Under the pieces are notes generated by a model, which saw only the letters and a list, made by a program, of their open reading frames with translations, had not been told where the DNA came from and made no database searches. From Bugula neritina (taxonomy: Eukaryota > Animalia > Bryozoa), in contig OZ037771.1 in assembly GCA_964035545.1 (NCBI GenBank), forward strand, positions 8,797,408 to 8,861,407: 64,000 bases of DNA, written 5' to 3'. A program made the translations under genes and the position numbers. Positions within the stretch are counted from its first letter, which is position 1, and each line of letters begins with the position of its first letter. Of this stretch, positions 7,756 through 50,359 are shown in pieces.

Positions 7756-8163
7756 GACAACACCACGGATTGCCAGAGATACGCACATTTACCTTTATCC
7801 AATCTCAAGATTCAAAAGTAGAAATGAAAACGAGTTTAGATTTTTACCAGGTTCTCAAAAATCGACATGCGAACCTCAAAAAAAATAATGTGTTATCCTG
7901 TGGCGCTATAAATGCACACACTATTCGTTGGCATTTTAAAAGAAAGTTGGAAGACGAATTTAGTGATACGCTACCAGAAGGGTGGGATATTAAAGATTTA
8001 ATCCAAGTTAACACTGATGCTCAATTAGATATAGGATTACATAACATCAACGGACCCCAGTACCAGGATTTAGTTCCTGCTGAAGGATACTATAGATGCT
8101 CGGCATCATCAATAAATGGGAGTCACGTTGCCATATCTGGCACTGTGCATCTTGTAGCTCCAG
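7756..8163 (+). CDS. Ig-superfamily gene exon 2 (Ig domain 1, neuroglian/L1/contactin-like)
   Basis: tgacag|GA...CCAG|gtagtg, phase 1-1; carries the Ig C-W-YxC signature in LSC...IRW...EGYYRCSASSING...AISGTVHL. Confidence 0.8.
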
Positions 8164-8185
8164 GTAGTGTATTATAAACTTTATC

Positions 8186-8530
8186 TTGTAGTTGTACTGT
8201 AGTCGTGTTGTAGTTGTACTGTAGTCGTGTTGTAGTTGTACTGTAGTTGTGTTGTAGTTGTACTGTAGTTGTGTTGTAGTTGTACTGTAGTCGTGTTGTA
8301 GTTGTACTGTAGTTGTGTTGTAGTTGTACTGTAGTTGTGTTCTAGTTGTACTGTAGTTGTGTTCTAGTTGTACTGTAATTGTGTTCTAGTTGTACTGTAG
8401 TTGTGTTGTAGTTGTACTGTAGTTGTGTTCTAGTTGTACTGTAGTTGTGTTGTAGTTGCATTGAGATATATATTGTAGTTGTGTTGTAAATTTATGTTAC
8501 AGTTGTACTGTAGTTGCGTTTTAGTTGTAT
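8186..8530. repeat. 22-bp minisatellite (dimer of 11-mers, TGTAGTTGTAC/TGTAGTYGTGT)
   Basis: Direct tandem repetition just downstream of exon 2. Confidence 0.9.
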
Positions 8531-8927
8531 TGTAGTAGTATATATTGTAAAAGTAGCTGTTTACAATTGTATTTTAACTAATTTGTATGCATTTTTTATT
8601 CAATAGTTTTTGTTATACATTGCTCTGTTGTTAATTTAGAGTTATGCCCACTATGAATTCATATCCTTGAGCTTTATAAAAATATTGAAGTTGAACTGTG
8701 GTGTAAAACCCAGCTATATACTAAAAAGTTGCTACTTCAAATAATAAAAGTTTAAATAAAGACGCACATATTAGTATTGCTATGAACATCTTATAAGAAA
8801 ACGGAATTAAATTCTAAAAGATAAAAACGTTGAAACAAATTTATTTTGAGATATTTTATTTAGTGAGCAATGCTGCAGTCGTAGATAAAAACATACCCCA
8901 TTATTCAGAAAGCTCTTGCAAAGTTTC

Positions 8928-11503
8928 CACAGTTGGTTTAAGGTCATACTTTTCATTTTCTGGCTCTTTGCCAGGTGCTTTATGTTCTATATGAACAATG
9001 TTCCACTGATAGCTCGAACAGGTTGAATGTCACAGGAACAAAAAAAATATAAAAAGATAAAGAAACTTATGTTCTCCAATATACTTTTTTATTTTTTTCA
9101 AAAGCCAATTCATGTTTAAGTTATAGCTTGTTGAAAAACATAGTCCCCCTTCCACATTCTTTTCAATTTATACGCTCCTGACTTGTTATTGTGTCTCAAT
9201 ATGCCTTGTATTTGAGTGCTTGTTAGTCTCGCTTCACTAACTTTGCCTATACTTCACAAGTGCCAGTGCTGCTGGCTCAAAAGCTAAATGTTATAAACTG
9301 TCAGCTAAAACCCAATCTTGTATTCCTAGGTTGGTTGGCCTAAATAAAACAATAGTCAAATCATGATTTCATGTTTTAAAAATTTACTCTATTCTAACCT
9401 GCTGCCTAGCTAGTTCTATTTTTGATGTATAATTACAAAATTTGTGATACATTTTTTTGGCAACCATGTAATTTATAAAATGCAGTAATGGTACTTATAA
9501 TATTATATTATTATCATTATAATATATTATATAGTATTATGTGTGTTTTTATTATCCTGCATAATATCTAATTTATTATTGTTGTTGTGCAAACAAGTGC
9601 AATTAACCTAGTTTTCAAAATGTACCTCTAAATTATCAGAATATCAGTTTAGATATTTTCATGCTTTGTAAGGTAAACCTAAAAAAAGAGGCTGTATTCC
9701 CAAAGTAAAGGGTGTTGAACTATGAACTATATTAGATTAGCCACTCTGCTACCAAGTGCATCAGTATAATATTATATGAATAGCTCTGATGCTTTGTCTC
9801 CGGTGGCTGGCTGCGATATGATAACTTGGCCAACTTCCAAGAGTTTAAAATTGGCGCAATTATTCAAGAGGTTACATACTGCACAGAGCTAGCAGTGATA
9901 GTAACCTTGCTATTGGCAGTACTTATTACAACTGCCAGCATATAAGCTGCATTGTAGAATGCCGTTGGGGCAGGCTAGTAAAACCAAATTCTGCTCTCTA
10001 ATATACCTTAGACAAAATGCAGCAACATAATTTTTAGTTTCAAATTACATTTGCCACCCTTACATGAGCTGTGGGCTTCATAAAGATTCATATGATTAGA
10101 GATTTATGCTATAGGCCCTATCTGTGCTAGTGTATGATGAAAATAACACACCATTGTCAAAGTTAACTTCAAGTATGTTGTTTTCCAGAAACTCAGTAAT
10201 GTCCATTTATCTCTCGCATACAAATACTTATGTAATACCATACAGTTTAAGTTTTATTTTAGAGCACATCTGCAAACTCTACAATAAGAGCTTGCTTTAC
10301 CAGTCTATTTCAGACCTGTTTTTGTAGCTAGTAATACGCAAGCTACTTATTTTTAAACTTTTGGGTTATTTGTTCAAAACCATTAGCTTTGCTAGTAACC
10401 CGAGACTATTGCAACAGTTGACTGCTATCAACATGAATTGACAGCCTAATAATTATAACCCTTTTGCGCGCGAAATATTTATGTAATGATAGTTACTCAT
10501 ATAGGGCGCGTCTTATTAACGATGACTGCGTGGTCTAGAGGTTAGAGGCGTCGGCGAGGAGTTAGTAGGTTATGGTTCAACCCTGTTTTGTCACAATTTT
10601 TTTTTGTAAACTTATGCAAATCCTACGCATGTATAATAAATATGGCTATAATTGTAAAGTTTTTTTTAACTTTTGTTCAACAGTAAGACAACATACATGC
10701 ATAATAATTAGATACTGAACACTGGACTAAACCTTAAATTGATCTTATAGAATACAATGTACTTAAAATAATCATATGTGAATTAGAGAAACTGAAAGTA
10801 CACCTGCTGCTCTATAGACAGACCTTTACTGACAAGACTGCAAAGTGAAGTGATTTAGCTGAAATTAACTCTGCCAAACAAACAAAGAATTATGTTGTGC
10901 TGAGGCATTTTCAATATATTATTGTAACATAGTGAGATGATTCAGCTAAGTGCTAATGTAAAACAGGGAACATTATATTGGCAGAAATCCAATAGACTGC
11001 CAATTTGTGCGAGAGGGTACTATATGTTATTGTGATAGCGCAGAGCGGCAAACGTACTAGGAATGTTATAATTGGTCACAGGAGCGTAGCTAGAACCACC
11101 ATATGAAGAATTTAGAAAATTGCAGTGAAACTTGCAAAATGGTGTATGTTTTTACCAAATTGTGAAGAGCATAAACAGAATTTCAAAAAACAAAGAAAGT
11201 ATATTAGAGAAAACATATCAAGGAATGTCAAGTTTAACTTTTAGACTTTATAAAATGAATCCCCTGTGCTACAGCAGTGGAACATGGAGGGTGTAAAATT
11301 TTACTTATTATGCAACAACTTTCTCAAAAAAATTTTTATTGAAAAATTAAAAAAGTATATGAAAGAGGAATGCAAGAGCTATCTTTTCATGTAAAATTTG
11401 TTAATGTGAGACAAAAACTGTTCGAGCTATCCCCTGGAAACCGTTTATATATAACATAAAGCAGTGCCTGAATCTGGAAAGTAATGACCTTAAACCAACT
11501 GTG
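8928..11503 (+). mobile_element. Non-autonomous DNA transposon with CACAG...CTGTG termini (CMC/EnSpm-like), copy 1
   Basis: TIR CACAGTTGGTTTAAGGTCAT at 8928 and its reverse complement ATGACCTTAAACCAACTGTG ending at 11503; 2-bp TC duplication; no transposase ORF. Superfamily is inferred from termini and TSD length. Confidence 0.8.
10524..10605 (+). other. tRNA-derived Pol III-like unit (A box, B box, oligo-T) inside the DNA transposon
   Basis: TGGTCTAGAGG (A-box-like, 10531), GGTTCAACCC (B-box-like, 10574), T9 at 10597; cloverleaf not intact. Confidence 0.5.
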
Positions 11504-11619: not shown

Positions 11620-11819
11620 TGTAGTGAAAATCCACATCAATAATATATAATATGAGAGATTTGTCTTTTCTAAAGTTTTTTTTATTTATTTTTCATGTTA
11701 ATAGAATGAAATTATGTAATTTGATCCTGTCTGAAAGTCGGAACAAAGTCCGATGTCGGGCTCCGAAGATTGGAATAAATTTCAATGTCGGAGTCCGATG
11801 TCGGAAGGAGTTGCAATAT
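11620..11819 (+). mobile_element. Solo LTR A, 5' part (split by the Gypsy-1 insertion)
   Basis: Starts TGTAGTGA after ATAC; U3 contains CCGA/TCGG repeats; resumes at 19403. Confidence 0.75.
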
Positions 11820-12091
11820 TGTAGTGAGGACGTAATACGCGCGTGCCCGCATTCCTTCAGCCTATCCAAGTGCGTCACGTGATAGGCCTTAGTTAGTAGT
11901 AGTTTTGCAAGAGAGAGAGCGTGCTAACTAAGCGAAGATGTAATCTCTAATCTGTGTACGAGCTGTATCTTTTATATAATTAGTAGTAAATAAACGTTGG
12001 AAGCTTTTACCTAAATACTTTATTGGTGTAGATAAATAGACATAATTACAAAGCTAGGAACCCACGCATAGTAGTTACACAAATTACTACA
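11820..12091 (+). repeat. Gypsy-1 5' LTR
   Basis: Direct repeat of 19127-19398 with TG...CA termini. Confidence 0.97.
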
Positions 12092-12092
12092 G

Positions 12093-12110
12093 TGGTGGCA
12101 GCAGTGGGAT
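12093..12110 (+). promoter_or_regulatory. Primer-binding site complementary to tRNA-Leu
   Basis: TGGTGGCAGCAGTGGGAT; near-perfect complement of the animal tRNA-Leu(AAG/UAG) 3' end. Confidence 0.9.
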
Positions 12111-12152
12111 TTCTAGCTACTGTATTAGAACAATGAGAAGTATTAGAACATC

Positions 12153-15100
12153 ATGGACGAGGGAGTAACTGCAATGGAAGGAGGTGAGCAGAACAATATT
12201 ATAGGCCCTCTCGGAGCTAGAGAGGAGGTATATAGGAACATGTTGGAGGTTCCCGTGTTCACAGGCTGCGAGGATATTGAACAATTCGTTCAAGAATTCC
12301 GTGAAACTGCCGCCATTGCAAGATGGCCGCCAAGAGTAACCCTTACAAAATTGCGGATGGCACTGACGGGAGAAGCCAAGCCGTACGGGTGGAAGCCTAG
12401 CATAAACGGGATCATTGCTACACTACGGGCCCGTTTTGGCATGCCCGTTGCCGTCGCCAAGTCCAGACTGCGAGGATTACTCCGCAAGACATGTACACCG
12501 CTTTCTGACCACGCCACTCTGGTGCAGAGACTGGCACGGACCGCGTATAGCGATCTGCCAGAAACACACAGACGGCACTACACATTCGAAGCCTTTGTAC
12601 AGTCTCTCAATTCCTTGGACTTCCACCACCAGTTACAAGCCAAGGGAGTGACCACGATTGAGGCTGCAATCCAAGAGAACAAGGCCTACGCTGGAGCCGA
12701 ACGACTCTATAAGACGGAAGAGGCCACACCCCAGCCCTCTAGGGAGCCAGACCATCCGGTCCGCATAGCTGCCGCGACCACGAAAACCCTCATAGAGACG
12801 GAGATAAGCCACTTGATGACTAGACTGGGAAAATTGGTGGCGACGATAACATACAACCACTCAAGGAAGAGTAAGAGGACGGCAACAAAACCCCCCAGAC
12901 CCATGATGCGACGCTGGGAAAACGGCAATCAGGGACACCGCCACCTGAGTGGCCCACGACTCAAATGGCAGCAGAAACCACAACCTCCCCGGAGACCCCC
13001 AGAGCTCCGCGGACACACACAGAGAGAAAAACGGGGTGGGTGTCGCCAGGAGCCCGTACGGGCCCAGCGACACAACCCCCGTCAATGGCAAACACCTCGC
13101 CGTACCAGCCAACCAGGTCGACCACGAGACCCCTTCTCTCTGCCTCTCACCAACCGCTTCGGTCCGTTACCAATAATGGAACAGACCAGCGAGGCCCCTC
13201 AGGGCATCGGGGAGGATCAGAACACCTCCCCGCAAGGAAACTCTCACCGGCCCCGCAAACCGCGGAACAAACGGGCACAGCCCCGTTCGGCCGAGACCGA
13301 GCACGCTGGGGGGATACGGGTACAACCTCACGGAGGCAGCTACTTCTTGCCAGGGAAGGTGGCCGGTAAAGCTGTCACCTTCCTGTTAGACTCCGGGTGT
13401 ACCACTAATATCCTCAGCCGTCGGGTCTTCGACACCCTCCCTCTCAAGGAGAGGGGAGCCTTAGCTCCCTATACCGGGGAACCGGGCACCCTAGCTGACG
13501 GGTCACGGATTCCTTTCTACGGTATCATAGAATTGGCTGGGCGCGTCCGCGACCAAGCCATTCAGGAAACCTTCATCATCAGCCCACTGGAGGAAGATGC
13601 CATACTAGGGATGCCGTTCTTGAAGAGACACGGGTGCCATATTGACTTTAGCAAGTCAGCCATGCTAATGGGCGGCAAAGAGCTCACCTGTGTCGACAAG
13701 TTCGGTCGTCCTCTAGCGGGAGGTGTGCAGGTAGTACGCAACTGTACTATACCCGGCCGCTCCCGGGCTACCGTTCACTGCAGAGTGAACAATAGCCAAC
13801 TCTCGGGGCTAGGGGTTGTCGAAGGTGCGCACTCTAGAATCCAACTCGCCAGCAGTCTTAACCGGCTGACTGACCGAGGAGAGATCTTGGTGCAGTGTGT
13901 CAACCCCTTCTCCGAAGCGGTACAATTACCGTCAGGATCCATGCTGGGTCGCTTCCACTCCATCCAGGAGGAGGATGTAGGGCCGTCGCTGGGAGCTGCG
14001 ACGGAAGGTCCCCAACAGAGCCCGTCAGTTAGGCGGGGGACCGTCCCATCACACGTCAAAGAGCTATACCAGGCAGCGTGTAACGGCTGCACGGGCAACG
14101 TGGAACGCCAGACTATGGCTCAGTTGCTACGTGATTATAGCGACGTGTTCAGCAGTGGGGACCATGACGTCGGCCTGACCACGGTCGTCCGTCATGAGAT
14201 ACCGCTGGCTGCAGGGACTACCCCTATCCGGCAACCCACCAGGAGGCTGGGACCCGAGAAGGAAAAGGAGGTAAGCCAACAAGTCCGGGATCTTTTGGAC
14301 CGCGGCCTCATCGAGCCAGCGCATAGCGCGTGGAGTTCACCGGTCGTTCTGGTCCGAAAGAAAGACGGCAGTTGGCGGTTCTGTGTGGATTATCGCAAGC
14401 TCAATAGCGTGACCATACAGGACGCCTACCCCTTACCCAGGATCGACGAATCTCTGGACGCCTTAGCCGGCAGCAAGTACTTCAGTACGCTAGACTTGTT
14501 GAGCGGCTATTGGCAGGTCCCCCTCAGCCCAGACGCCCAGGAGAAGGCGGCGTTCATCACGCGGGACGGCTTATGGAAGTGGAAAGTCCTCCCCTTCGGA
14601 CTGACTTCCGCCCCCGCCACGTTCCAGCGGCTCATGGAACAGGTCCTCAGTGGACTCCACTGGAAGACACTGCTAGTGTACCTCGACGACGTCATCGTGA
14701 TCTCCCCAGACTTTCAGACGCACGTCAGCCGTCTGCGGGAGGTCTTCGATCGACTCCGAGGCGCCAATCTGAAGCTCAAACCCTCCAAGTGCGCTCTCTT
14801 GCAGCCAGAGGTGAAGTACCTGGGGCACATCGTCGGCCGCCACGGCGTGGCGACGGATCCTGAAAAGGTACGAGCTATAGAAGATTGGGTAACCCCCCAG
14901 GATTTGACCGGGCTACGGGCTTTCCTGGGGCTGGTAGGGTATTACAGGCAATACATACCAGACTTTGCGGGGGTAGCGCAGCCGTTAAACCGGCTCACCG
15001 CAAAGGGGGTGACCTGGCAGTGGACTCCCGTCGAACAGAGAGCGTTCGACTGCCTCAAAGGCCGCCTGCTGGAGGCCCCTATCCTGGCTTATCCAGACCC

Positions 15101-17612
15101 TGCCCTGGAGTACATCCTCGATACTGACGCCAGTGACCAAAATGTCGGCGCTGTGCTGTCCCAGGTGCAGGAGGGCCGCGAAGTAGTCGTGGCCTACTAC
15201 AGTAAGTCTCTCTCGCCCACTGAACGAAATTACTGCACTACCCGAAAGGAATTGCTGGCAGTAATCAAGTCGGTGAAGCATTTCAGACCTTATCTATACG
15301 GCAGGAAGTTCCGCTTGCGGACCGACCACGCCTCCTTGATTTGGTTATGTAAGAGAGCAGAACCGTCCAGCCAGGTCGCCCGATGGCTCGAGGTCCTGGC
15401 CGAGTTCTCTTACCGGATCGAACACCGACCCGGTAAGAAACACGGCAATGCTGATGGACTGAGCCGGCGACCGGACGAGGGGTGTAAACAGTGCCTCAAC
15501 ATCGAGAAGAGGGACGGAGGTCCCCCAAAATCCGAGTTGAGAGCACTGAACCACTCTGAAACGGAGTATGACTGGGACCAGGGTCAACTCCTACAGAAGG
15601 CCCCTACGCCCCCGGAGGCTATCCAACGCCTCCGTGCCAATCCTGTCTTGGCTGATAACGTTAGGGAGCTACGAAGACTCCAGGAGGACCTCCCTGGAGT
15701 AGTAGCCGACGTATATCGTGCCAAAAAGGAGGGGCGACGACCCAGTGAAGAACAACTGCGGCAGGGATGCACCGAGTTACGGTTGTACTGCCAACGTTGG
15801 GATTCCCTGCGGATCGGGCCAGATGGTCTGCTGACCATCACAGTGGCTGCTCACAACAAACAACACGGCAGAAAAAGGGTGATCTGCCCAGCCGCCATAC
15901 GCCGGGAGTTAGTATGGGACACCCACAAGCAAGCCCACGCCGGGGTGAGCAGGGTTCTCTCCAAGTTACAACTCCGGTGGTACTGGCCCGGCATGGAGCG
16001 TGAGGTGCGGCGTAGAGTCAGACAATGCGAAATCTGCCAGGCCAGCAAGCATGGCCGTCTCCCTGGTGAAGCGGGACGGCGTCGGCTATATGCTGGAAGG
16101 CCATGGCAGGTGGTAGCTATCGACCTAGTCGGACCCATGCCCGTCACCCCCAGGGGAAACAGCTGGATCCTAGTATTAACCGACCACTTTACACGGTGGG
16201 CGGATGCCCTGGCTATTCCAGATGCGTCCGCCCCCACAGTGGCCAGGGTGCTGGACCAAAATGTATTCTGCTATCTCGGACTACCTGAGCAAATACATTC
16301 GGACCAGGGGGCTCAATTCCAGTCCCAACTGTTGAGTGACCTCTGCCGCTTCTGGGGAGTAAACCAAAGCAGGACCACCCCGTACCATCCTCAGGGCAAC
16401 GGGGTGGTGGAACGCAACAATCGCATGTTGGGCGATGCACTGCGCAGCCTGCTCCTCGGCCGGGGTCAGGAGGAGTGGGATACGGTACTACCGCAAGTCA
16501 TGCGGGCCTACCGTAGCACACCACATACCAGTACGGGGGAAACCCCTAACCTCCTGATGCTCGGTCGAGAGACGCGAGTGCCTGACCACCTCGCATACCA
16601 CATCCCAGAGCAGGACTATACCATCCACGAGTATGCCAGTAAATTGATAGAGGACCTGAGGGCCGCACACGAAATACTGCGGGCAAAGCAGTGGCAGGTA
16701 CGGCGAGAGGACTCTCAGGAACCACCCCTCTATCGAACTGGGGACTGGGTGTGGATGATCAACTACCGTAGGCGTCGAGGACAAGCGGCTAAGCTCCAGC
16801 CTAAGTTTGTGGGACCCTACGTAGTAGTTGAGGCTATGCCCAATCATACGTACAAGTTGGAGCGATCTGGACAGGTCTCTGTCCAGAACGAAACCCGCTT
16901 GAAACCGTATTGGGCTAGCCCAGGAGCAGCAGGAGCAGCCCCCCCGTTGTTGGAGCCCAGGAGGCAGACAGTAACGCGTGGGCGGCAACGGCATGGACCA
17001 GAATACGAAGTGGTTGTGCCGCGGGGAGAGGACTTAGTGAGGCAGAAAACGCCACTCCCACCAACGGAAGTGCGCCCACCGCCCCCAGTACCAAGTCTAC
17101 CCCCACCACTTCCGGTTCCGCATCCGCGTCCGGAAGTGCAAAACCCCCCCGTGGGAGGGGCTCCATCTGGAGACAACAGCAGAGAGGGGAACACCACCAC
17201 CAACGGCGGGCCAGAAACACCACAGGTGGAGCAAAATAGCCCACCAGTGAGTACGCCGCCCCAACCAACAGCTATAACTCCCTCTCCAGCTGATGCGTCA
17301 CCTCCCCTGGAACGGGGACAGCATACCAGACAACCCCCAGCATACCTTAAAGATTTCATTTGTGACCGTGTTACAAACGGCAGTTATGAAAGTCTAGCTG
17401 GGTGCCGTACGGAAAGACTGGCAACAAAGCGTGGGAGTTGTGAACACCACGGAAATCTCAACTTTTGCGAAGGCGGAGTAGTAAACAAAACTACTACGCC
17501 CGAGGCAAATAGTTCCAACCGTGCGCAACAACCACGCTGTCCAGTCTTTTCGTACGCTGACATTGTCAAGGGAAGACGCATTCAAACTCAATCCACGGAC
17601 ATCCAAGCTTGA
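12153..17612 (+). CDS. Gag-Pol polyprotein, single ORF of 1819 aa (Gag, protease, RT, RNase H, integrase)
   Basis: FLLDSG protease; RFCVDYRKLN, LPFGL and YLDD in RT; LDTDAS...NADGLS RNase H; H..AH...CEIC, DLVGP, HSDQG, VERNN integrase; GPY motif. Confidence 0.97.
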   Translation: MDEGVTAMEGGEQNNIIGPLGAREEVYRNMLEVPVFTGCEDIEQFVQEFRETAAIARWPPRVTLTKLRMALTGEAKPYGWKPSINGIIATLRARFGMPVAVAKSRLRGLLRKTCTPLSDHATLVQRLARTAYSDLPETHRRHYTFEAFVQSLNSLDFHHQLQAKGVTTIEAAIQENKAYAGAERLYKTEEATPQPSREPDHPVRIAAATTKTLIETEISHLMTRLGKLVATITYNHSRKSKRTATKPPRPMMRRWENGNQGHRHLSGPRLKWQQKPQPPRRPPELRGHTQREKRGGCRQEPVRAQRHNPRQWQTPRRTSQPGRPRDPFSLPLTNRFGPLPIMEQTSEAPQGIGEDQNTSPQGNSHRPRKPRNKRAQPRSAETEHAGGIRVQPHGGSYFLPGKVAGKAVTFLLDSGCTTNILSRRVFDTLPLKERGALAPYTGEPGTLADGSRIPFYGIIELAGRVRDQAIQETFIISPLEEDAILGMPFLKRHGCHIDFSKSAMLMGGKELTCVDKFGRPLAGGVQVVRNCTIPGRSRATVHCRVNNSQLSGLGVVEGAHSRIQLASSLNRLTDRGEILVQCVNPFSEAVQLPSGSMLGRFHSIQEEDVGPSLGAATEGPQQSPSVRRGTVPSHVKELYQAACNGCTGNVERQTMAQLLRDYSDVFSSGDHDVGLTTVVRHEIPLAAGTTPIRQPTRRLGPEKEKEVSQQVRDLLDRGLIEPAHSAWSSPVVLVRKKDGSWRFCVDYRKLNSVTIQDAYPLPRIDESLDALAGSKYFSTLDLLSGYWQVPLSPDAQEKAAFITRDGLWKWKVLPFGLTSAPATFQRLMEQVLSGLHWKTLLVYLDDVIVISPDFQTHVSRLREVFDRLRGANLKLKPSKCALLQPEVKYLGHIVGRHGVATDPEKVRAIEDWVTPQDLTGLRAFLGLVGYYRQYIPDFAGVAQPLNRLTAKGVTWQWTPVEQRAFDCLKGRLLEAPILAYPDPALEYILDTDASDQNVGAVLSQVQEGREVVVAYYSKSLSPTERNYCTTRKELLAVIKSVKHFRPYLYGRKFRLRTDHASLIWLCKRAEPSSQVARWLEVLAEFSYRIEHRPGKKHGNADGLSRRPDEGCKQCLNIEKRDGGPPKSELRALNHSETEYDWDQGQLLQKAPTPPEAIQRLRANPVLADNVRELRRLQEDLPGVVADVYRAKKEGRRPSEEQLRQGCTELRLYCQRWDSLRIGPDGLLTITVAAHNKQHGRKRVICPAAIRRELVWDTHKQAHAGVSRVLSKLQLRWYWPGMEREVRRRVRQCEICQASKHGRLPGEAGRRRLYAGRPWQVVAIDLVGPMPVTPRGNSWILVLTDHFTRWADALAIPDASAPTVARVLDQNVFCYLGLPEQIHSDQGAQFQSQLLSDLCRFWGVNQSRTTPYHPQGNGVVERNNRMLGDALRSLLLGRGQEEWDTVLPQVMRAYRSTPHTSTGETPNLLMLGRETRVPDHLAYHIPEQDYTIHEYASKLIEDLRAAHEILRAKQWQVRREDSQEPPLYRTGDWVWMINYRRRRGQAAKLQPKFVGPYVVVEAMPNHTYKLERSGQVSVQNETRLKPYWASPGAAGAAPPLLEPRRQTVTRGRQRHGPEYEVVVPRGEDLVRQKTPLPPTEVRPPPPVPSLPPPLPVPHPRPEVQNPPVGGAPSGDNSREGNTTTNGGPETPQVEQNSPPVSTPPQPTAITPSPADASPPLERGQHTRQPPAYLKDFICDRVTNGSYESLAGCRTERLATKRGSCEHHGNLNFCEGGVVNKTTTPEANSSNRAQQPRCPVFSYADIVKGRRIQTQSTDIQA

Positions 17613-17621
17613 ACGCTGAGT

Positions 17622-18767
17622 ATGATTACAAATACCGGGTTCTCAGGTAAGCTTGCTCTGAGCTAACATTTCCACTCATGGAAACCAGTCTACCATCAGT
17701 CAGTTCTGATTTAATCGCCTTGATTGAATCACAACTACTGGGGACTGAGTCCTACGTGAAAGGCGACGAGAACATAAAGATGGCCGACGATCTACTAGAT
17801 CTGGAGCTTGACACTATGTCTCTCTGTCAGTCTACACGACATGACTCAGTCCCGCGAGTGCTATCTGAAAAGATGTATGACTCTCAGACTAGTAACAGTC
17901 GGTTGTCATCAGAATTATGGTGTAAAGATCATATCCGATCTAACAGTAATTCTGCTCTTTTAGATACCGCTCTCTCTCCTCTATCTGGTGACATGCCGTC
18001 ACTAGAAATGGCTTGGAACGAGGAACCCGTTCCCACTACTCTTCCGGAGGCACTCCTACAACAATCATGCTGGGTTACAACAGATACAGAAACACTGATA
18101 CGAGAGCACAAAGGAGATGACCAATGCACCACCTGCCGTTTATGCCAGCTTCATTTCACTACCCCACGAAGACTCCGAGTTCATATTCCTCAACATTACT
18201 TCACCACCTTTTGTCCCTGTGGTGAATACAGTTACCACAGGGACTACATCCTCCGTCACCAACGAACCATGGGATGCCATATTGGACACCTATTCGAAGT
18301 CGACGAACCCTCCTTTCCACAATTCCTTAATCTCATCCGACCGTTCATATCAGACCCAATTCGATATGAACGGCTGCGCCAGGAGTTCCCCGCACCCAGG
18401 ACCATCACACAGGGACCCTGCCCTAAACCACCCGGATATAGGAAACCCCGCATATCCCATTCCTCACCCCCCGCACGCACAGTGCCTCGCCCCGACTCTA
18501 TACCAAGAGTCGTGTTACGACGCATCGATATACCACAGCGATGGCGTCCCTCCCCCCCTGTCTCCCCCAAGGCCGTCTCGTAAGCGGCGTTGGCCATCTT
18601 CATCCCCCAATCGACACTCTGCCCCCGCCAGGAATCTAGGCGAGGCAGAAGAGCGGATACGAGAATTAGAGAAAGAGGTGCAAAGACTGACACCGAGAAT
18701 CTCCGCCGCCGCATCAGAACTCCGGGCCCTCTCTGCCTCTGTAGCCCGAATGAAAGGAAGTGCTTGA
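17622..18767 (+). CDS. Spliced accessory gene of Gypsy-1: join 17622-17646,17964-18583; coiled-coil tail continues to 18767 in the +1 frame
   Basis: ATG micro-exon MITNTGFS then CAG|GTAAG; branch-like CTAAC and TCTGCTCTTTTAG| acceptor; in frame with CRLC-x12-HIPQH and CPC-x12-H-x5-C; the same structure occurs in two other copies. Confidence 0.8.
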
Positions 18768-19115
18768 AGGTGATGTCCCTCCTTTCCTATCCGTGATGGT
18801 ACAGCAGGTGGTGCCCCAGTACAGACCCTTCTCACGCTAGTGCTCACAGACAATTACTCAGTGTAACAATATAGTAACCTACCAGTATACAACTCTAACT
18901 CTACAAACTATTCCCTTATAGTGCCTCCCGCCGGTGCCATTGTACATTTACTGTTATATTTTTTTTATGTATGTACATGTTTCTTACTACTGTACATAGC
19001 CATGTTTTTTTCTTTGTGTGCCACACGCTCTCTCAGTTTTTATATATATATAGTTTTATAACATTTTATGTTTGCATTATCTAATCTGTGTTATCAGAAA
19101 GTAGGGCTTTCTGCT

Positions 19116-19126
19116 GGAGGGGGCGG
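19116..19126 (+). promoter_or_regulatory. Polypurine tract of Gypsy-1
   Basis: GGAGGGGGCGG directly before the 3' LTR. Confidence 0.9.
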
Positions 19127-19398
19127 TGTAGTGAGGACGTAATACGCGCGTCCCCGCATTCCTTCAGCCTATCCAAGTGCGTCACGTGATAGGCCTTAGT
19201 TAGTAGTAGTTTTGCAAGAGAGAGAGCGTGCTAACTAAGCGAAGATGTAATCTCTAATCTGTGTACGAGCTGTATCTTTTATATAATTAGTAGTAAATAA
19301 ACGTTGGAAGCTTTTACCTAAATACTTTATTGGTGTAGATAAATAGACATAATTACAAAGCTAGGAACCCACGCATAGTAGTTACACAAATTACTACA
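19127..19398 (+). repeat. Gypsy-1 3' LTR
   Basis: Direct repeat of 11820-12091, followed by the ATAT TSD. Confidence 0.97.
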
Positions 19399-23461: not shown

Positions 23462-23649
23462 GTACAATATTTTGCCTATGTTTATTTTTCTAATCAGAGC
23501 GTCAATTGGTGTATTGTGATAATTCGGTGGATTTGGAAACCTCACCAACTCTACCTGTAGAGGCTGGGTGATAGTTGGTTAGGAGATGGTCGAAGTGGTG
23601 CCAGCTCTAATCAGCTGCATAAGCTGCGGGGGGGGGGGGGGGGGGGAGG

Positions 23650-26353
23650 GGGTATCATTTTAATAAGTTTAAAATCCAAACTTGACGTTCCTTGATATGT
23701 TTTCTCGAATATACTTTTTCTTCTTTTTGAAATTATGTTTATGCCCTTCACAATTTGGTCAAAACTTACAACATTTTACAAGTTTCATTGCAATTATCTA
23801 GACTTTTCATATGATAATTTTGGATATGCTCCTGTGACTAATTATAACTTCTCTAGTACATTTGCCACTTTGCGCCATCACATTAACAAAGTACCCTCTC
23901 GTGCCTATTGGCAGTCTATTGGCATTCTTCCAATATAATGTTCCCTATTTTACATTAGCGCTTGTTAGCATCTTCTCACTATGTATATAATATATCTATT
24001 GAAAATGCTTCAGCACAACATAATTATTGGTTTGTTTGGCAGAGTTAATTTCAGCTAAATTTTCCACCCACCTCACTTTACAGTCTTGTCAGCAAGTGTC
24101 TGTTTATAGTGCAGCAGGTGTATTTTCAGTTTCTCTAATGCATATATATTTTAAGAACATTATTTTCCATGAAATCAATTTAGGCCCTTTCATAGAGCAA
24201 AAAAAGGTGAAGCATTCCTTAGACATGTCAAAAATTGTTTTCTACAAAATTGTATAAAGGTAATTTCAACCTAAAGGGTAATGTGTTTTCCTGAGCAACA
24301 CCAATATCTGCCTGCAGGCATTTCACTATTACGAGAAGGAATAGGCTGCTAGCAGCTGCCTACAATCTTGATAATTGAGTGCAGTAATTGAAAAGCTTCA
24401 ATAACCTAAGCACTCTCATTTAGTTTCGGGCGCAGGTTAAGAATAGCACAAGAATGTAGCTTCTTCTATAAAAACCCAGGCTTTTCTTTATTTCTCTATT
24501 ACTGCACTTCTCTTGATATTGACTTATTAGGCCTAACTAAGGTTTAGCCCAAAGTTCAGTATCTAGTTGGTACGCATGTATGTTGTCTAACTGTTGAATT
24601 AAAAGTGTAAAAAATCCTACAGCTGTAGCCATATTTACCCATCATCATGATTACACATATGAATGTGTAGAATTTGCATAAGCTAGTGGAAAAAAATCTT
24701 TGCTGGGGCAAGAGGTGGAACCTTACTCTACAGTCTACAGTGTGCTAGCCGCACCCCTTACCTTTAGACCACACAAGCTTTGCCAATAGTGAAGCATTAT
24801 ATGAGTAACTATCATTATATAAATATCTGGAGGCACAGATGGGTATACAATTATTATTAGTTAGGCTGTCAATTAATGTTGACTGGCAGTAGATAGCTGC
24901 TGGTGATCTTGAATAACTAACTCAAAAGTTGAAAAATAAGTAGCCTGCATATTATTAGCTACAAAATTAGGTCTGAAATAGACCTTGTCTAGACAGTGTT
25001 AGAGTTTGCAGTTGTGCTCCAAAATATAAATTAAACTGTATGCTATTACATAAGCTTATGCATGCAAATATGTTATGACAATACTAAGTTTGAGGAAAGC
25101 AACATAGCCTACTTGAAGTAAACTTTGACAATAGTGTGTTATTTTCTTCGAATACAGTAGCACGCATAGGGCTTATACTCTAAAGCATAACTCTCTAATC
25201 ATATGAATCTTTATGAAGTTCACAGCTCATGTAAAGGTGACAATGTAATTTGAAACTAAAAATTCTGTTGCTGCATTGTGTTTAAGGTATATTATGGGGA
25301 AAAATTTGGTTTTGGTAGCCTACCCCAACGGCATTCCACAATGCAGCTTATAGGCTAGCCAGTTGTAATAAGTAATTATAATAGCAAGGTTACTATTATG
25401 GCTAGCTCTGTACAGTATGTAACCTCTTGAATAATTTCGCCACTTTTAAACTATTGGAAGTTTGCCAAGTTATCATATTGCAGCCAGCCACCGGAGACAA
25501 AGCATTGCAGCTATCCATATATCATACTGATGCACTTGGTAGCAGACTGGCTAATCAAGTAATCTAATTTAGTTCAATGCCCTTTACTTTGGGAAACAGC
25601 TTCTTTTTTTAGATTTACCTAACAAACCATGAAAATATCTCAACTAATATTTTAATAATTCAGAGGTACATTTTTAAAACTGAATTAATTGCGCTTGTTT
25701 GCACAACAACAATAATAAAATATATATTATGAAAAGTAATAAAAAACACATAATACGATATAGTATATGATATAATAATATAATATTACAGGTACCATTA
25801 TTGCATTTTATAACTCGGATGGTTGCCAAAGAAATCTATTACACCAATGCTATAATTACATCAAAAATTTTGATAAGAAGCAGGTTGAAATAGAATAGAT
25901 TCCTAAAACATGAAATCATGATTTGACAAGTGTTTTATATAGGCTAACCAACCTAGGAATACAAGATTGGGTTTTAGCTGGCAGGCCCTAGCATGTAGCT
26001 TTTGAGCCAGCAGCACTGGAACTTGTAATGTATAAGCAAAGTTAGTGAAGCGAGATTAACGAGCACTCAAATACAGTATATTGAGATACAATACAAGTCA
26101 GGGGCGTATAAATTAGAAAGAATGTGGAAGGAGGACTATGTTTTTCAACAAGCTATAACTTGAAGATTAATTGGCTTTTGAAAAAAAATTGAAAAAGTAT
26201 ATTGGAGAACATAAGTTTCTTTATTTCTTCATATTTTTTTTGTTGGCGTGATATTCAACCTGTTTGAGCTATCAGTGGAACATTGTTCATATAGAGCGTA
26301 AAGCACATAGCAAAGAGCCAAAAACTGAAAAACAAGACCTTGAACTAATTGTG
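23650..26353 (-). mobile_element. CACA-terminal non-autonomous DNA transposon, copy 2 (inverted, one end lost)
   Basis: Reverse complement of about 8928-11260 over more than 2 kb; retains a degenerate TIR ending GTG at 26353; truncated at the G-run near 23630-23650. Confidence 0.85.
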
Positions 26354-30602: not shown

Positions 30603-33600
30603 TGTTGTAGTTTCGTGAATTACAACTACTTGTGGGTATTATTGTGTGATTGACTAGGTAGATGGGACCGAACTTAGATTTCCAGGCACAGAGTTCCTTA
30701 TTTATATGACCTACAGAGTCTTTCAGCTGGTTCAGCCCAGCCGTCACAGCTGGGGTGCCAATTGTCTGAAACCGACTTGCAGTCTTCTGAGCCTGTACTT
30801 CATACTATGCATAGCATTTATATGTCAGGGGGTGGAGGACGACACGGATGACGTCTTATCAGCCTCATGTTCTCCTCGCTTTCTATGTGACCGTGGACTT
30901 GGACGAGCATGATGATGTAGCGATAATCTTTGTGAGAAGATGGCCAAGATTAGTGCTTTGCAGACGAGGGGGCAAATAACATAAAAAAATCCTGAAAGCT
31001 GTATACATCAATCGTAAAGACAGCTCCCATATAACAGTCAGCTCGCAGCTGGTGAGCATTGATGACATGGGGTTAGCTATTATACTCCCCGCAAGGACAA
31101 AATGCTAAAAGATAGTGAGCGTCCACATGCGCCTTCAGTGACCTAATTGTTGCTAATGGCTCTTGGCATAGTTGGCATACGGTACTACCACTAGGGCCCC
31201 AGGCGGCCTCAATCTTTTGGGCCGTGGCTGGTGATACTTATCGCCATCGCCTGCAGAGTAATTTTGGAAACTCATCGTCTTTACACTCCATGAGGGGAGA
31301 AGGAGGTTTAGTTGGTAAGCCGTCCCCGTGCCAGGTGGAGCTCATAGCAATAGCAGGTTGAATAGCGCCTGAAAGAGCAGAAATAAGACTAGATCAAACT
31401 AGACCTATACACATAATCCTGGTGAAGCACGACCTTATAATAGCCTGGAAGTCACAACCCTCCCGGTAGAACACTCGCGAGACTAGTACTAGTAAGGTAG
31501 TCTGACAGAGAACAAGACAAGAACAAGACCTTCTATCATTTCATATTTTCACCACCCTTACTCACTAGTATTATCTCCTGTTAGAATATACTAACAGGAT
31601 GAGTCCAGTGACTGAGCTGACGTCAGAGTTGTTTCTGTACTAGAAGAATATTTTGTAAACTTACCCTGAAACCCGGTATTGCGTGGCATACTCGAATATT
31701 TGAGGATACGTATAATAGAAAACTACAAGTACGTCTACCCTTGACTGCATCAGCCTATGAAAAGATTGAGCAGCATGTTTGTTGTGTGTGACGGAAGCAT
31801 TTAACAGTTGGCAGATTATTTCTGCCTACTGCTCCTCCCTCACAAAAGTAACTTGTTCTAGTGATAGCACAACTCCTACGCTGAGTGGGACAACTCCCTG
31901 CGGAGCTTACCGTTTGACTAGTAAATCTGCCATTTTGCACACAGTTGCAGACAAAGTCTCGCAGGTAGGGCGGAGGTTGTCTAGAGCGTTGACAATTCTC
32001 TAAAAACAGCAAAGCCTCCACGGATGGACTCGCAAGTTCCACAGGTGAAAGATCCTGCTCCGCTCTTCCTCCATCTCCAAGAAAGAACATTCTTCTATTA
32101 CCGAGGTTCCCACTTCCAGACCGGGGTTAGGTTCCGGAAGTGACGGTACTAGGGCTGGAACAGTAGGCGGCAGACTCACTTCCGGTAGAGGAGGTGGTCG
32201 CTCGTCTGTTACCAGCTCCCGGTTCTACAGCACTACCACCTCATACTCGGGTCCATGCCGTTGCCGCCTGCACGTTACTGCCTGCCTCCTAGGCTTGAGC
32301 AACCGGGGAACTTTTTCTACCGCATTGGGGCTAGCCCAATACGGCTTCAAGCAAGCCTCATTTTGGATTGACACCTGTCCTGAGCACTCAACGTTGTACG
32401 TATGACTGAGCATAGTCTCGACTATCAAGTAGGGCCTCACGACCTTGGGCTGTAACTTAGCCACTTGTCTACAATGCCTGCGGTAGTTGGCCATCCAGAC
32501 CCAGTCCCCCACTTGATAGAGGGGAGGCTCCTCAAAGTCCTCAGTCTGCACCTGCCATTACTTCTCGCGAAGCATTTTGTGTGCGGTCCTCATGCACTCT
32601 ACCAACTCCCCCACATACTCGTGTACAGAGTTATCCTGGTCAAGAACATTGTAGGATAGGTGGTCAGAAACTCGAGTCTCTCGACCGAGCATCAAGAAAT
32701 TGGGGTTTCACCAGTACTAGTGTGTGGCATGCTGCGGTAAGCCCGCATGACTTGCGAGAGCACCGTATTCAATTCCTTTTGACCGCGGCTAAGGAACAGG
32801 CTCCGGAGCGCATCACCCAACATGCGGTTGTTACGCTCTATCACCCCGTTACCTTGTGGATGGTACGGGGTAGTCTTGCTCTGATTCACCTCCCAGAGGC
32901 AACAGAGGTTGCTTATCAGTTGAGACTGAAGCTGAACACCTTGGTCCAAATGTATCTGCCCAGGGAGACCAAAGTAACAAAATACATGTTGGTCTAGCAC
33001 ACGGGCCCCAGTCGAAGCCTACGCGTCTGAAATAGCCAGAACGTTGGCCCATCTTGTAAACTGTTCCGTGAGCACCAAGATCCAGCTGTTGCCTCAGGGT
33101 GTTGTGGGCATGGGGCTGACCAGATTGACAGCAAGCACTTGCCACGGCTGGCCAGCATATAACCTCCTCTGTCTCGATTTACCAGGGAAACGGTCATACT
33201 TAATAGCCAGGCAGATCTTGTCCTGTCTAACTTTGAGCCGCACATTATGCCCCATCCTTGGCCAGTACCACCGGAGTGACAACTTGGGGAACTTTTCTGG
33301 GCTCTTAGATGAGCCTTTTTGTGAGTGTCCCAAATTAACTCCCGGTGGATAGTGGTAGGGCAGACCACCCTCTCCCTCTCTGGGTGTCTACCATTGGCGG
33401 CCAATGTAATGGTTAGAAGTCCATCTTCGTTGACCTGTAAAGAGTCACAGCGTTGGCAGAATAGTTGTACCTCGGCCCATCCTTGCCTCAGTTGCTTCTC
33501 ACTGGGCTGCCTCCCTTTTTTTTGGCTTGGTATACGCTGGCTACCACTCCAGGAAGGGTTTTCTGAAGTTTACTAAGCTCCGAGACGTTATCAGCTACAA

Positions 33601-37918: not shown

Positions 37919-40900
37919 TGTTATAATTTCCAGAATTGTGGGTTGGTGTGCAATCAAGTGACTGTTATTTAGTATACTAGAGAAACTTCGCCAGTGTAAT
38001 CCGAGTTAATACTAATAAATTTTATACACAATGATGCATCACAAAAACTACAGTTATACAAATACATTCAGCTAATTGATACGGTCTATACAGTTCACCA
38101 GCCTAAACTCAACTAACTGAAACACGGGAAGCTATCACTACTAAAACTGTCAGTCATTCCGATTGGTTGTCTGCTGTCCCGGGTCATCCCAATGACCCCG
38201 TGCTGCACTCATGGGGGAAATAACATTTCCCCGTTATTACGCTGGTAGCTCTATGAGCCACAACACCGCCCCTACCAGCAGAAAGCCCTCTTTCTGATAC
38301 AAAAAAAATTACAATCAGCACACATAATGTCAGTAGAGCATAACATAAAAAAAGACAGGTATACACAACGACAGAAATAATCATTATAACAGATACGGCA
38401 TATACAATTGGTTAGCTACGGAGAGAGAAGTAGCACTAGCTGTGGTAGTGGCCAAGGAAGTTGAGCTGTTGAGCATTTACATGATCACAGTGTTGTAGTT
38501 AAGCACTTCCAAGAGGGTAAGGCTTACAAATCATTCCAGGAAGGAGAACCAGAGTCATGGCTTGGAGAGCCGGTGTTTGGCTTGACGGGCACGTAGCTTC
38601 CGTTTGATTCTGCCTACGAAGCCTTTCAATTGATCGAGTCCTGTCGTGGTGTTTAATAGATCTGGGGCTAGTTGGGTGAAATCGGCCTGTAGCCGAAGGA
38701 GCCGCTCTTCTACAGTAGCTAGGCGAGTATGATCTGGAAATGGGGTCGAGAACTTACGAGCGGGAGGTGCTATCTCTTTTTCCGCATTAGGGTAGGTGAG
38801 TTTTTCAGGGGTATATATAATCTGGGGTCTGTCCGATATCATCGATGATTGTTGTCGAGCATATTTCAGCACATGCTGGAACCCGGAAATCAAAACAGCC
38901 AGCACCATCGCTTTCTTCACCAAAGGCAGTATTAGTGGTAAAAATTCTGGGTATAGATCAGGGTCCACGACGTAGTTTTCTTCCGGGAAGCATTCAGCTG
39001 CTCGATGTCTAATGATTGGGTAGGGATAGACGTCGTGGTGTCCGTTTGGGCAGAATGTCAGTAGGAAATGGGCATCCACATTTAGTCTCAGTGAGCGGTG
39101 AGATGGGCTATCTTCATAACAAATTTGGCACTGCGTACTCCCTTTGGGTCCCCATGCAACCTCTATTTTCCTCTCCGTCTCTATTGACACCCACCGCCAG
39201 CGGCGGCGCAGTGGCCCTGGTAGTCCGCCATTGGTATTCTCCTCGTGGTGTGGTGCGGGGAATGCTCGGTTCCGTACCCTGGTTGTAGCGGGTCGAGTGT
39301 AACCTGAAAAAGTTCAACAGCGCTAGTGAAATACACTGTAGTGTCGCCGGCCTTAAACAGCCTGACAACTTTTCGTTTGGTTAACACTCGCAGAGATTAT
39401 TGTTAGTGAGTAGTTGGAAGAGAACACACACTGCAGTGAGATTGTGAAATCTCTGAGTCAATTTGTGTTTCTAACACTGTAGTTCACTAGCCTTTCTTCA
39501 GCTCAATTGACTCAGACGAGACGGAGCTGAGTGATGCAATCTAGTTTCCATACCAAGAACATAGTTAACTCACCCCCAGATCCGGTATTGTATGACATAC
39601 TGAATGTTTGAGAATGGTTTCTGTTTCTGTTTCCCCGGCAGTGATTATTTCTTCCTGTTCTCCGAATAGAGCCCTCCCTCCGTGGGGGTTGGCACTTCCG
39701 GAACTGGCTCGGTTTCTGGAAGTGAAGGTATCAAACTTGGCGTCGGAGGCGGCGGGCGCACTTCTGTGGATGGAAGTGGTTGCTCATCTCGTACCAAGTT
39801 TTCTTCCCGCGGGATGACTACTTCATACTCGGGTCCATGCCGCCGTCGCCCACGCGTTGTCGTCTGCCTCCTAAGCTCCAACAACGGGGAGGGGCTTTTT
39901 CCACTGCCTCTGGGCTAACCCAATACGGCTTCAAGCGAGTCTTATTTTGGATGGACACTTGTCCTGAGCGCTCGATCTTGTAGGTATGGTTGGGCATGGC
40001 CTCAACTACCACGTAGGGTCCCACGAACTCAGGCTGTAATTTAGCCGCCTGTACAAGACGCCTACGATAATTGACCATTCACACCCAGTCTCCTGTCTGA
40101 CAGAGGGGTGGCTTTTCGGAGTCCTTGCGCCACACCTGCCACTGCTTCTCTCACAGAATTCCGTGTGCGACCCTCATTCACTCTACTAGTTCACTGGCAT
40201 ACTCGTGAACTGAGCTGTCTTGCTTTGGACTGTGGTAGGTAAGATGGTCAGATACCCGAGTCTCTCTTCCGAGCATCAGGAAGTTTGGGGTTTCACCAGT
40301 ACTGGTGTGTGGGGTGCTGCGGTATGCACGCATGACTTGAGGCAACACCGTATCCCATTCCTTCTGACTGCATCCGAGGAGTAGATTCCGGAGCGCATCA
40401 GCTAGCATCCGGTTATTGCGCTCCACCACCCCGTTACCTTGGGGATTGTACGGAGTGGTCCTGCTCTGATTTACTCCCCAGAGGTGGCAAAGGTTGCTCA
40501 TCAGTTGAGACTGGAACTGAGCGCCTTGGTCAGAATGTATCTATTCGGGGAGGCCAAAGTAACAGAATACATGTTGGTCCAGCACCCTGGCCACTGTCGC
40601 AGCTGACACATCTGGGATCGCCAGAGCGTCTGTCCACCTGGTGAAGTGGTCGGTTAATGCTAAGATCAAACTGTTGCCTCTGGGGGTTAGGAGCATGGGT
40701 CAGCTACTACTTGCCACTGCCTTCCAGCATATAACCTTCACCGTCCCGCATCACCAGGGAGACAGACAGCCATGCTTGCTGGCCTGGCAGATTTCACACT
40801 GCTTCACTGAGTCAGACATCACGCTGCATTTTGGGCCAATACCACCGGAGTTGAAATTTGAAGATCACTCTCTGTACTCCTGCGTAAGCCTGTTTGTGAG

Positions 40901-43900: not shown

Positions 43901-44894
43901 GTAGGCGGTACCTACTGAGGTTTGATGTGTCAGTGCTGCTACCAGTTGGGCAACCTTCGATGCGGCAGTTAACTGTCCCACGGCAGCGGTCGCGGGCGGC
44001 TCTGCCTCCAGATCGGTTGCTGCGTCTGTGAGCTCTATCTCCACTTAGCGGGAGTTCCCGCAATTTTTATGCATCTGGTTTGCCAGGAGATAAGCTTCTC
44101 TTTCCGCCAGAGCGCCTTCGACTGTGGTGACTCACCTAGCTAGAAATTTATGGTGGAGTCCCAAGTCCTTGACGAATTGCACAAAGGCATCAAAGGTATA
44201 CCTCTCACGGTTAGCTTGAGGCAGATCGCTAAACGCAATCTGCGCCAGCTTCATCACCGTGATGGCATGTTCTTGTAGCGGGGTGTTGGGATCACGCCGC
44301 AGCCTTTGTAGACGGGTCCGGGCGTCTATGGCAGAGATGCCAAAACGGGCCCGTAGAGAAGCAAAGATACTATCGATGTCTGGCCCTAACCCATAGGGCT
44401 TGGCCTTATCTATCAATGACATTCTGAGCTTCAGCAGGGCCACTCTAGGTGGCCACGGGGAGACGTCTATTACATTACTAAACTCTTGTATGAATTGTTC
44501 CACTTCTTCGCCCGAGAAGGTGGGTGCCTTTAACCGGTAACGGTCTTCATTCAGCTCCAGCGGAACTCTTCGCTCTTCTACTACATGATTCACAGGAATA
44601 ACATCATCTCTACGCTTACCTTCTATCGGCTGTGGTTGCGTTCCAGCATCTTCAGTTTTTATCGTTGACGTGCACAGTATCCCACTGCTGCCACCACTGT
44701 TATATTTTCCAGAATTGTGGGTTGCTGTGCAATCAAGTGACTGCTATTTAGTATACTAGAGAAACTTCGCCAGTGTAATCCGAGTTAATACTAATAAATT
44801 TTATACACAATGATGCATCACAAAAACTACAGTTATACAAATACATTCAGCTAATTAATACGGTCTATACAGTTCACCAGCCTAAACTCAACTA
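37919..44894 (-). mobile_element. Gypsy-2: near full-length degenerate relative of Gypsy-1
   Basis: 3' LTR 37919-38265; truncated 5' LTR 44698-44894 with about 4 differences over the shared ~195 bp; tRNA-Leu PBS 44679-44696; PPT; gag with CWEC...H...C knuckle; frameshifted pol. Confidence 0.93.
38555..39598 (-). CDS. Spliced accessory gene of Gypsy-2: join 39598-39574,39303-38555 (257 aa, open)
   Basis: MSYNTGSG then G|GTGAG; acceptor CTTTTTCAG|; continues in frame into the 38555-39190 ORF (CQIC..., coiled coil VEERLLRLQADFTQLAPDLL). Confidence 0.75.
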
Positions 44895-49692: not shown

Positions 49693-50359
49693 TCAGTGAA
49701 TCTCATTAAACGCCAAATTCACAACCTTCTGCCAACCTTCGTAATTTCATTAAGTTTACATCAATTGTATCTTCACTTTGGCTACTGTTGTGAAATGGAA
49801 GTCTATTCAGCACAATCCCTGCAGTGCGATGATTACAGTACTCATGAAAACGCTTAATTACATCTTTTAGCTTTCTCTCAGCAACTTCTTCTTCAATTTC
49901 AGTAATTTCTCCGCTAACCCCTAGATTAAATTTCATTTGAGAATAAACTTTACGTACATTTTCACCACCACAATGTCTGAACAAGGCTAATTTACTTTTC
50001 TTTGCGGCTCTTGAGTTAGCAGGTCTATTGTTAGAAAATAATCCTCAAATGACCTAATATAACGGCGCCATTTTTTTGACAAATCTTTTGCCCTTAAATT
50101 CAATTCTCCAGGTGGTAAAATGCCTTCCATTTTTTAACTAACAATCAATATACGCTGCCACCATGTTTTATTCTTTTGATGTCTATTCAATTAGTAGTTA
50201 AAATTGGATTGGTTATCATCTGCAAATTATTTTAATCAAGCTCTAGAATTTTTCAAACAGGAAGTGACTATATTTTCCAAAATAAATATAAATTGATCAG
50301 CTAAAACATTAGGAAAAGGTAACTCCAAGTTTACATAAACTGTGTGAATATTACAAAAG

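Follow-up and report, generated by a model that had tools for sequence, protein, structure and literature searches.

We describe here an accessory gene, located behind pol in a group of Ty3/Gypsy retrotransposons, that very probably consists of two exons separated by a sense-strand intron, both this structure and its splicing being predicted from sequence with high confidence. The stretch of 64,000 nt that was analysed (the window) is repeat-rich eukaryotic DNA, probably animal, and three of its Gypsy elements, E1, E2 and E3, were compared. E1 (11820-19398, + strand) is a young element with the features of a Ty3/Gypsy LTR retrotransposon, i.e., direct LTRs of 272 nt (11820-12091 and 19127-19398, both +) that are 99.6% identical, an 18-nt primer-binding site (12093-12110, +) common to E1 and E2, a purine tract just ahead of the 3' LTR, a target duplication of 4 bp (ATAT) and one single gag-pol ORF (12153-17612, +) with the order protease-RT-RNase H-integrase. 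E2 and E3, both on the minus strand, are older relatives in which pol is frameshifted and 73-76% alike to that of E1. An intron on the sense strand of a retrotransposon, which is copied through RNA, is expected to vanish quickly; here it has been kept across clades whose proteins are a third identical.

In E1, the first exon (17622-17646, +) is preceded by AGT and consists of eight codons, counted from the ATG, plus one base (MITNTGFS plus one G). It is followed by an intron of 317 nt (17647-17963, +) that runs from GTAAG to TTTTAG, with CTAAC shortly upstream of the acceptor, and that has a predicted conserved RNA structure. The coding part of exon 2 (17964-18583, +) contains a linker, a two-site zinc domain (about 18125-18410) and a Pro/basic linker, and it ends prematurely in this copy, as a frameshift in a C-rich stretch near 18550-18580 has left the basic cluster and the C-terminal coiled coil (18550-18767, +) in a different frame, that of 18099-18767. 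In the relatives P0002, P0010 and P0016 these parts are contiguous with the rest of the protein. E2 has an exon 1 of 25 nt (39574-39598, -; MSYNTGSG plus one G), an intron of 270 nt (39304-39573, -) with the donor GTGAG that is closed in all three frames, and a whole exon 2 (38555-39303, -) with zinc domain and coiled coil. The E3 gene has an exon 1 of the same 25 nt (31665-31689, -; MPRNTGFQ plus one G), a decayed copy of the intron (31369-31664, -; 296 nt, donor GTAAG) and an exon 2 (30682-31368, -) with several stops. The AGT-ATG starts at 17622 (+), 39598 (-) and 31689 (-), the three peptides, the donors, the intron lengths and the acceptors were all re-found as an earlier note on this DNA had given them, and so was the phase-1 join, which enters the zinc-finger frame in E1, E2 and E3, the remaining two frames closing early. 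The statement in the same note that the ORF track misses the gene entirely was too strong; only exon 1 is missed, and the E1 ORF at 17651-18583 covers the intron frame and exon 2.

The 33-nt pattern formed by exon 1 and the donor was found in three places only in the 64 kb, even with 3 mismatches allowed, and in none of 100 shuffles, which shows uniqueness and not independence, the pattern having been drawn from E1, E2 and E3 themselves. It had been suggested earlier that the splice signals be compared with the intron interior across copies. In a three-way alignment of E1, E2 and E3, conservation is highest in exon 1 with its donor, where 20 of 33 columns are invariant; the intron interior has 71 invariant columns out of 284, and the corresponding figures are 19/60 upstream, 9/28 at the 3' end of the intron and 14/90 at the start of exon 2, and conservation of the intron signals beyond the three elements was inferred from proteins. 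The conservation of exon 1 extends to third codon positions. On the sense strand of E1 (7.6 kb) the donor at 17647 is the sole 8-of-9 donor match and, as in other introns of the GT-AG type, a donor, a branch-like site, a pyrimidine tract and a YAG are conserved across copies.

Independent support for the splice comes from a protein, P0172, in which an initial MYPNTKFQ is followed at once by the D of the exon-2 start, with the exact phase-1 junction predicted. At this junction its cluster mate P0195, with 86% identity over 137 aligned residues, shows residues encoded by the intron. The chance of finding such a junction is about 9e-6 per protein, or 0.003 over 335 proteins, for a pattern that was taken from E1 and E3 and from which P0172 deviates at the glycine. 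Such a protein could come either from a copy made from spliced RNA or from an RNA contig. A search for intron-less copies, as the earlier note had advised, yielded nearly none: among the 70 E1-type proteins that show at least five residues ahead of the acceptor, 69 keep intron residues and P0172 is the exception. A peptide of exon-1 type is present at the N-terminus of P0172 and also of P0243.

The acceptor has left its signature in both clades. All 65 E1-type rows have L, S, V or I as the residue preceding it, F never occurring there, and 16 of the 17 E2-type rows have S or L, as expected from a conserved YAG. Of 78 proteins of the E2 clade, a single one has an open frame throughout the intron, and the frames in which members pass it differ, something that a coding region would not allow. 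The junction of P0172 and this signature, together with family and fold searches in which nothing env-like was found, uphold the central claim made before us, namely a two-exon, non-env accessory gene with a sense intron.

The product belongs to a zinc-finger family that lacks annotation, and whose members are cut wrongly by gene callers because exon 1 is missed. The E1 ORF retrieved 92 relatives among 881 candidates and E2 78 among 460; a joint profile gave 203 relatives (120 of them listed) and, among representatives of 50% clusters, 276 matches (150 of them listed), and no named protein appeared among the relatives listed with sources. The protein has about 250-365 aa. Its core is a canonical C2H2 finger plus a second CxC..H..C site, followed by the Pro/basic linker and the C-terminal coiled coil. 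The C2H2 pattern (CxxC-x3-F/Y-x5-L-xx-H-x3-H) is canonical in 102 of 227 core rows, E1 included, and loosely kept in 199, and the second site is found in 153. Scores against Pfam zf-C2H2 are mostly under cut-off, and no Pfam family and no family or fold match names the protein. The basic linker reaches a net charge of +13 in P0002, and a basic cluster was detected in 47 of the 164 longer rows. AlphaFold modelled the core and the helix with a pLDDT of about 85-98 and the intron-encoded part with 41-61. Exon 2 is under protein selection, as judged from the conservative amino-acid changes in its core and linker (z 2.8-4.4).

This protein is not env-like and has no conserved membrane segment. In four proteins from two clades (E1 and a third one) the best 19-residue hydropathy is 0.5-0.7, i.e., there is no hydrophobic segment, and the stretch that attains 2.19 in E2 and 1.53 in P0103 is folded by the model into a globular domain. 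Weak structural neighbours, none of them significant, include the DNA-binding fingers of Zif268, CTCF and SALL. Two read-through proteins, P0173 and P0203, end in translated purine tract and LTR start, which indicates that close relatives occupy the same position in the element. Among the distant relatives, P0209, P0240 and P0276 have two or more copies of the zinc domain, and some of these may be host genes.

The intron itself has the look of a conserved RNA element, perhaps with a coding role as well. The E1 intron folds with -102.7 kcal/mol (z -5.15, none of 100 shuffles as good), that of E2 less strongly (z -2.2, 5 of 200 shuffles as good) and that of E3 with a z of 0.16, and a consensus fold of the three copies fails to reproduce the main stems of E1. 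The pairs of the E1 intron were followed in 37 relatives (39 before removal of near-duplicates), these being related copies whose bases at codon positions 1-2 were deduced from the amino acids. Over 41 testable pairs, broken cells make up 8.6%; matched random pairs have 19.6 +/- 4.4%, with none of 300 such controls reaching so low a value, and the true register has 128 broken cells against 223-230 in slid registers. Pairs changed on both sides number 10, in comparison with 2-3 in slid registers, and 13 of 300 controls reach 10. An identical test on two exon-2 stretches gave no pair conservation. Within the E1 clade the intron frame is 72% conserved, as much as the zinc core and more than the exon-2 linker (50%), and in-frame indels are found in 1 of 39 rows versus 12 of 63, but amino-acid changes in this frame show no excess of conservative ones over the neutral expectation (z 0.04-0.08). 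Such high conservation with neutral-looking amino-acid changes points to a constraint on the bases. The intron is common to clades with zinc cores 33% identical. Judging from the inferred covariation, we predict that the intron of the E1 clade is a conserved RNA structure, weaker in E2 and absent in the decayed E3; a search of Rfam gave no match for it. Several pol windows of 317 nt (13100-16570) fold strongly too, with z from -4 to -7 at 12 shuffles each, and the genomic RNA of E1 may be structured along much of its length.

A donor near the gag start is likely to use the exon-2 acceptor as well, in a second splice like that of retroviruses. The E1 candidate (12181-12189, +, junction 12183^12184) matches fewer than 8 of 9 donor positions and the E2 candidate, at 44619 (44614-44622, -), matches 8 of 9, both being phase 1 in the gag frame. 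A protein of the E2 clade, P0101, departs from its relatives exactly at the acceptor residue, and its Met-started leader of 14 residues ends in E, like the E2 gag donor; this leader matches gag weakly. There is one such protein for each of the two kinds of junction, P0172 and P0101. For exon 1 we infer an internal start, because an acceptor directly upstream of it is unlikely. Three GGAAGT/ACTTCC-type words in the pol tail (17065-17138, +), which we take to be ETS-like, are aligned in E1, E2 and E3 and form a cluster that is a candidate internal promoter or enhancer; there are none in the tail of the related element E4.

Our preferred reading, a tentative one to which we give somewhat less than an even chance, is a switch between spliced and whole RNA of the type of Rev and CERV. 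The RNA would first be spliced by default, yielding the short zinc-finger/coiled-coil protein, which would then bind the structured intron, carried only by unspliced RNA; the unspliced RNA would be exported, Gag-Pol would be made and the RNA packaged, and intron-less genomes, devoid of the response element, would rarely spread. Exon 1 would be expressed from the internal start in the pol tail, and the gag-start donor would reach the same acceptor too. A sense intron in an element copied through RNA should be lost once packaging takes in spliced genomes; that such a loss can happen is suggested by P0172. The rarity of intron-less copies across clades with cores so divergent (33% identity) suggests that genomes without the intron fare poorly or rarely get packaged; rare intron-less copies (1 in 70) and long persistence point to an essential RNA element. 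A loop of the Rev type is the simplest link between a predicted structured element in the unspliced RNA and a small, basic, zinc-binding and probably oligomeric protein from the spliced form. What speaks against it is that a protein with a canonical C2H2 finger and a basic helix is at least as good a candidate for binding DNA. HIV-1 Rev is not known to have a zinc finger.

The earlier note did not recognise such a design from described Gypsy clades. There is a precedent, the CERV protein of Cer1, a Ty3/Gypsy element of C. elegans, which according to the accessible part of its description is needed for the export of unspliced genomic RNA (PMC10309623). In the same part of the source, CERV is a protein of 517 aa encoded by five exons; it is described with H, M and G domains, a G-protein-like fold and a C4-type loop, and no homologues are reported outside nematodes (PMC10309623). 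Compared with CERV by this description only, the present protein is different (about 250-365 aa, C2H2 plus CxC..H..C plus a C-terminal coiled coil), and so is its gene, which has its own 25-nt first exon after the pol stop and an intron of roughly 300 nt, predicted to be structured. Fold searches gave no G-protein-like match, but the coiled coil dominated their results. Complex retroviruses produce from spliced RNA a small protein that binds a cis element; for Rev this element is the RRE, located in the 3' part of the unspliced RNA, as told in the portion of the source available (PMC5035971). Like the HIV-1 Rev/RRE pair and the CTE of MPMV presented there, the E1 clade has a putative cis element in the 3' part of the unspliced RNA, for which a role in export is suggested by analogy (PMC5035971); the predicted structure is found only in unspliced RNA. 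The best inference is that the gene may work like CERV or Rev, and membership in either family is not claimed. Cer1 CERV is the only worked-out Gypsy case found in the literature searched, and a splice-switch design as such is already known in Gypsy from it; for the present zinc-finger protein family, without name or annotation, and for its layout no description was found there, and the elements offer a small, tractable system for the nuclear exit of unspliced retrotransposon RNA.

A second possibility, which we consider rather doubtful, is a switch like that of foamy virus Tas. An internal promoter in the pol tail would produce one pre-mRNA, from which a long acidic form would activate transcription and a short spliced form, retaining the zinc domain and the coiled coil without the acidic region, would damp it, the intron structure setting the rate of splicing. 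The E1 intron does contain an open frame of 95 codons (17678-17963, +), in frame with exon 2, that starts at ATG 17678 and could give a long form. It is acidic (net charge -12 over residues 1-50) and predicted to be disordered (residues 1-100), and both this acidic N-terminal region and the canonical C2H2 finger, with the conserved GGAAGT-type words as candidate promoter upstream in the pol tail, are in favour of a Tas-like arrangement. The frame is open to the position of ATG 17678 in 31 of the 76 E1-type core-covering proteins, versus 20 of 76 that reach the surely coding coiled coil, in a sample of proteins that favours open frames; the neutral expectation is about 21 stops among 375 changes. 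A frame homologous to it and in frame with the core exists in P0243, P0251, P0323, P0286, P0248 and P0225 (cores 44-52% identical), one distant open-frame clade being the sister of E1 plus E2 in a moderately supported tree, and in P0243 an exon-1-like peptide reads through the donor position into this frame. Prototype foamy virus is the precedent, with an internal promoter at the 3' end of env that drives tas/bet and a 301-bp intron that is cut from the Tas ORF to give bet, following the part of the account available (PMC13220597). As far as this account goes, the likeness lies in a 3' accessory unit before the LTR and in a coding intron of roughly 300 nt, the two forms giving different proteins. 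In contrast, foamy virus has env, a proven DNA-binding activator (Tas) and a proven internal promoter, where we have candidate motifs only and found no homology, and its bet continues in a second ORF; exon 2 of the present gene would be common to both forms. What weakens the Tas-like switch is that the amino-acid changes in the intron frame are neutral-looking, within the E1 clade and also in six of seven distant comparisons (p 0.10-0.92; p 0.048 in the other one), that the E2 clade has lost the frame (the one open protein in 78, with frame shifts between members), and that one high-depth contig has frame-breaking indels at 17671-17695. Besides this, with proteins sampled for openness, base-pair constraints alone could hold the frame open. 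On the available sequences, we regard the existence of a real retained-intron long form as a toss-up. Less probable than a Tas-like switch would be the union of both principles, in which an env-less Gypsy lineage would have independently evolved the logic of Rev/RRE and of Tas/Bet in one 1.1-kb unit, with two donors and one acceptor, an intron that would be response element and coding frame at the same time, a short export-licensing form and a long acidic activator form, and a protein unrelated to either.

The Rev/CERV-like switch has to be weighed also against a simpler use of the intron, as a cis element for export or packaging read by host proteins or by Gag, the zinc-finger protein having a separate job, e.g., anti-silencing or integration steering. 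This would explain the rare intron-less copies and the conserved structure without self-binding, and the presence of the zinc domain in many distant proteins (the 276 matches) is in line with a separate job; moreover, simple retroviruses export their unspliced RNA by a CTE bound by host Tap/NXF1, as stated in the accessible part of the source (PMC5035971). However, the location of the RNA element inside the intron of a zinc-finger gene is left unexplained, and no similarity to known anti-silencing or targeting domains was found; we consider this proposal improbable. Far more improbable is the absence of any splicing, in which case the gene would be one ORF that starts at ATG 17678, and exon 1 and the motifs resembling splice sites would be promoter or chance features. 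The E1 ORF is indeed open across the intron, gene callers give proteins of about 365 aa for many copies, and exon 1 is conserved at third codon positions as a DNA motif would be. But the exact junction of P0172, the join of P0101 at the same acceptor, the E2 intron closed in all frames in front of a whole exon 2, and the acceptor signature in both clades all speak against it.

Additional ORFs downstream of pol, which are often expressed from spliced messages, are described in rotifers, plants and insects in the parts of the sources available (PMC5408684, PMC7264820, PMC11952523). The present gene resembles the env, ORF3 and sORF2 of such LTR elements in lying behind pol, ORF3 being typically expressed from spliced messages, but those described in these parts are env-like, fusogenic or enzymes, whereas here no membrane segment is conserved and the intron lies within the accessory gene. 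The accessible parts of the literature searched (including PMC12440569, PMC8220671, PMC8556966, PMC6238403 and PMC13524379) hold no account of this two-exon zinc-finger gene.

Some other features of the window can be mentioned. A block at the end of pol (17526-17578 in E1, 31732-31784 in E3) is 77% alike in these two elements and missing in E2. Positions 11797 and 19420, on both sides of E1, are joined in a contig of run X1 with 39 other letters, in what looks like an empty site in a related repeat; E1 has inserted recently, and into a repeat. On both sides of E1 lie the arms of a long, much fragmented inverted duplication, 77-94% complementary (8928-11264 and 23649-26353). The 5' LTR of E2 contains a second LTR element (44892-49694, with 189-nt repeats 93% alike) that severs the first part of E2. 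Further related Gypsy pieces are E4 (60040-63090, +) and E5 (28222-26400, -), which have tail sequence in common; neither gave a match to the accessory gene, and both seem cut short. Around E4 there are inverted repeats of 222 nt, 95% complementary (58943-59164 and 63714-63935), which may belong to a DNA transposon that carries a Gypsy fragment or was interrupted by one. At 54668-57733 (-) there is a broken LINE that gave matches to endonuclease and reverse transcriptase, and tandem arrays occupy 1-742, 1533-1726, 2205-2380 and 8137-8539, with periods of 15, 18/21, 8 and 11/22, respectively.
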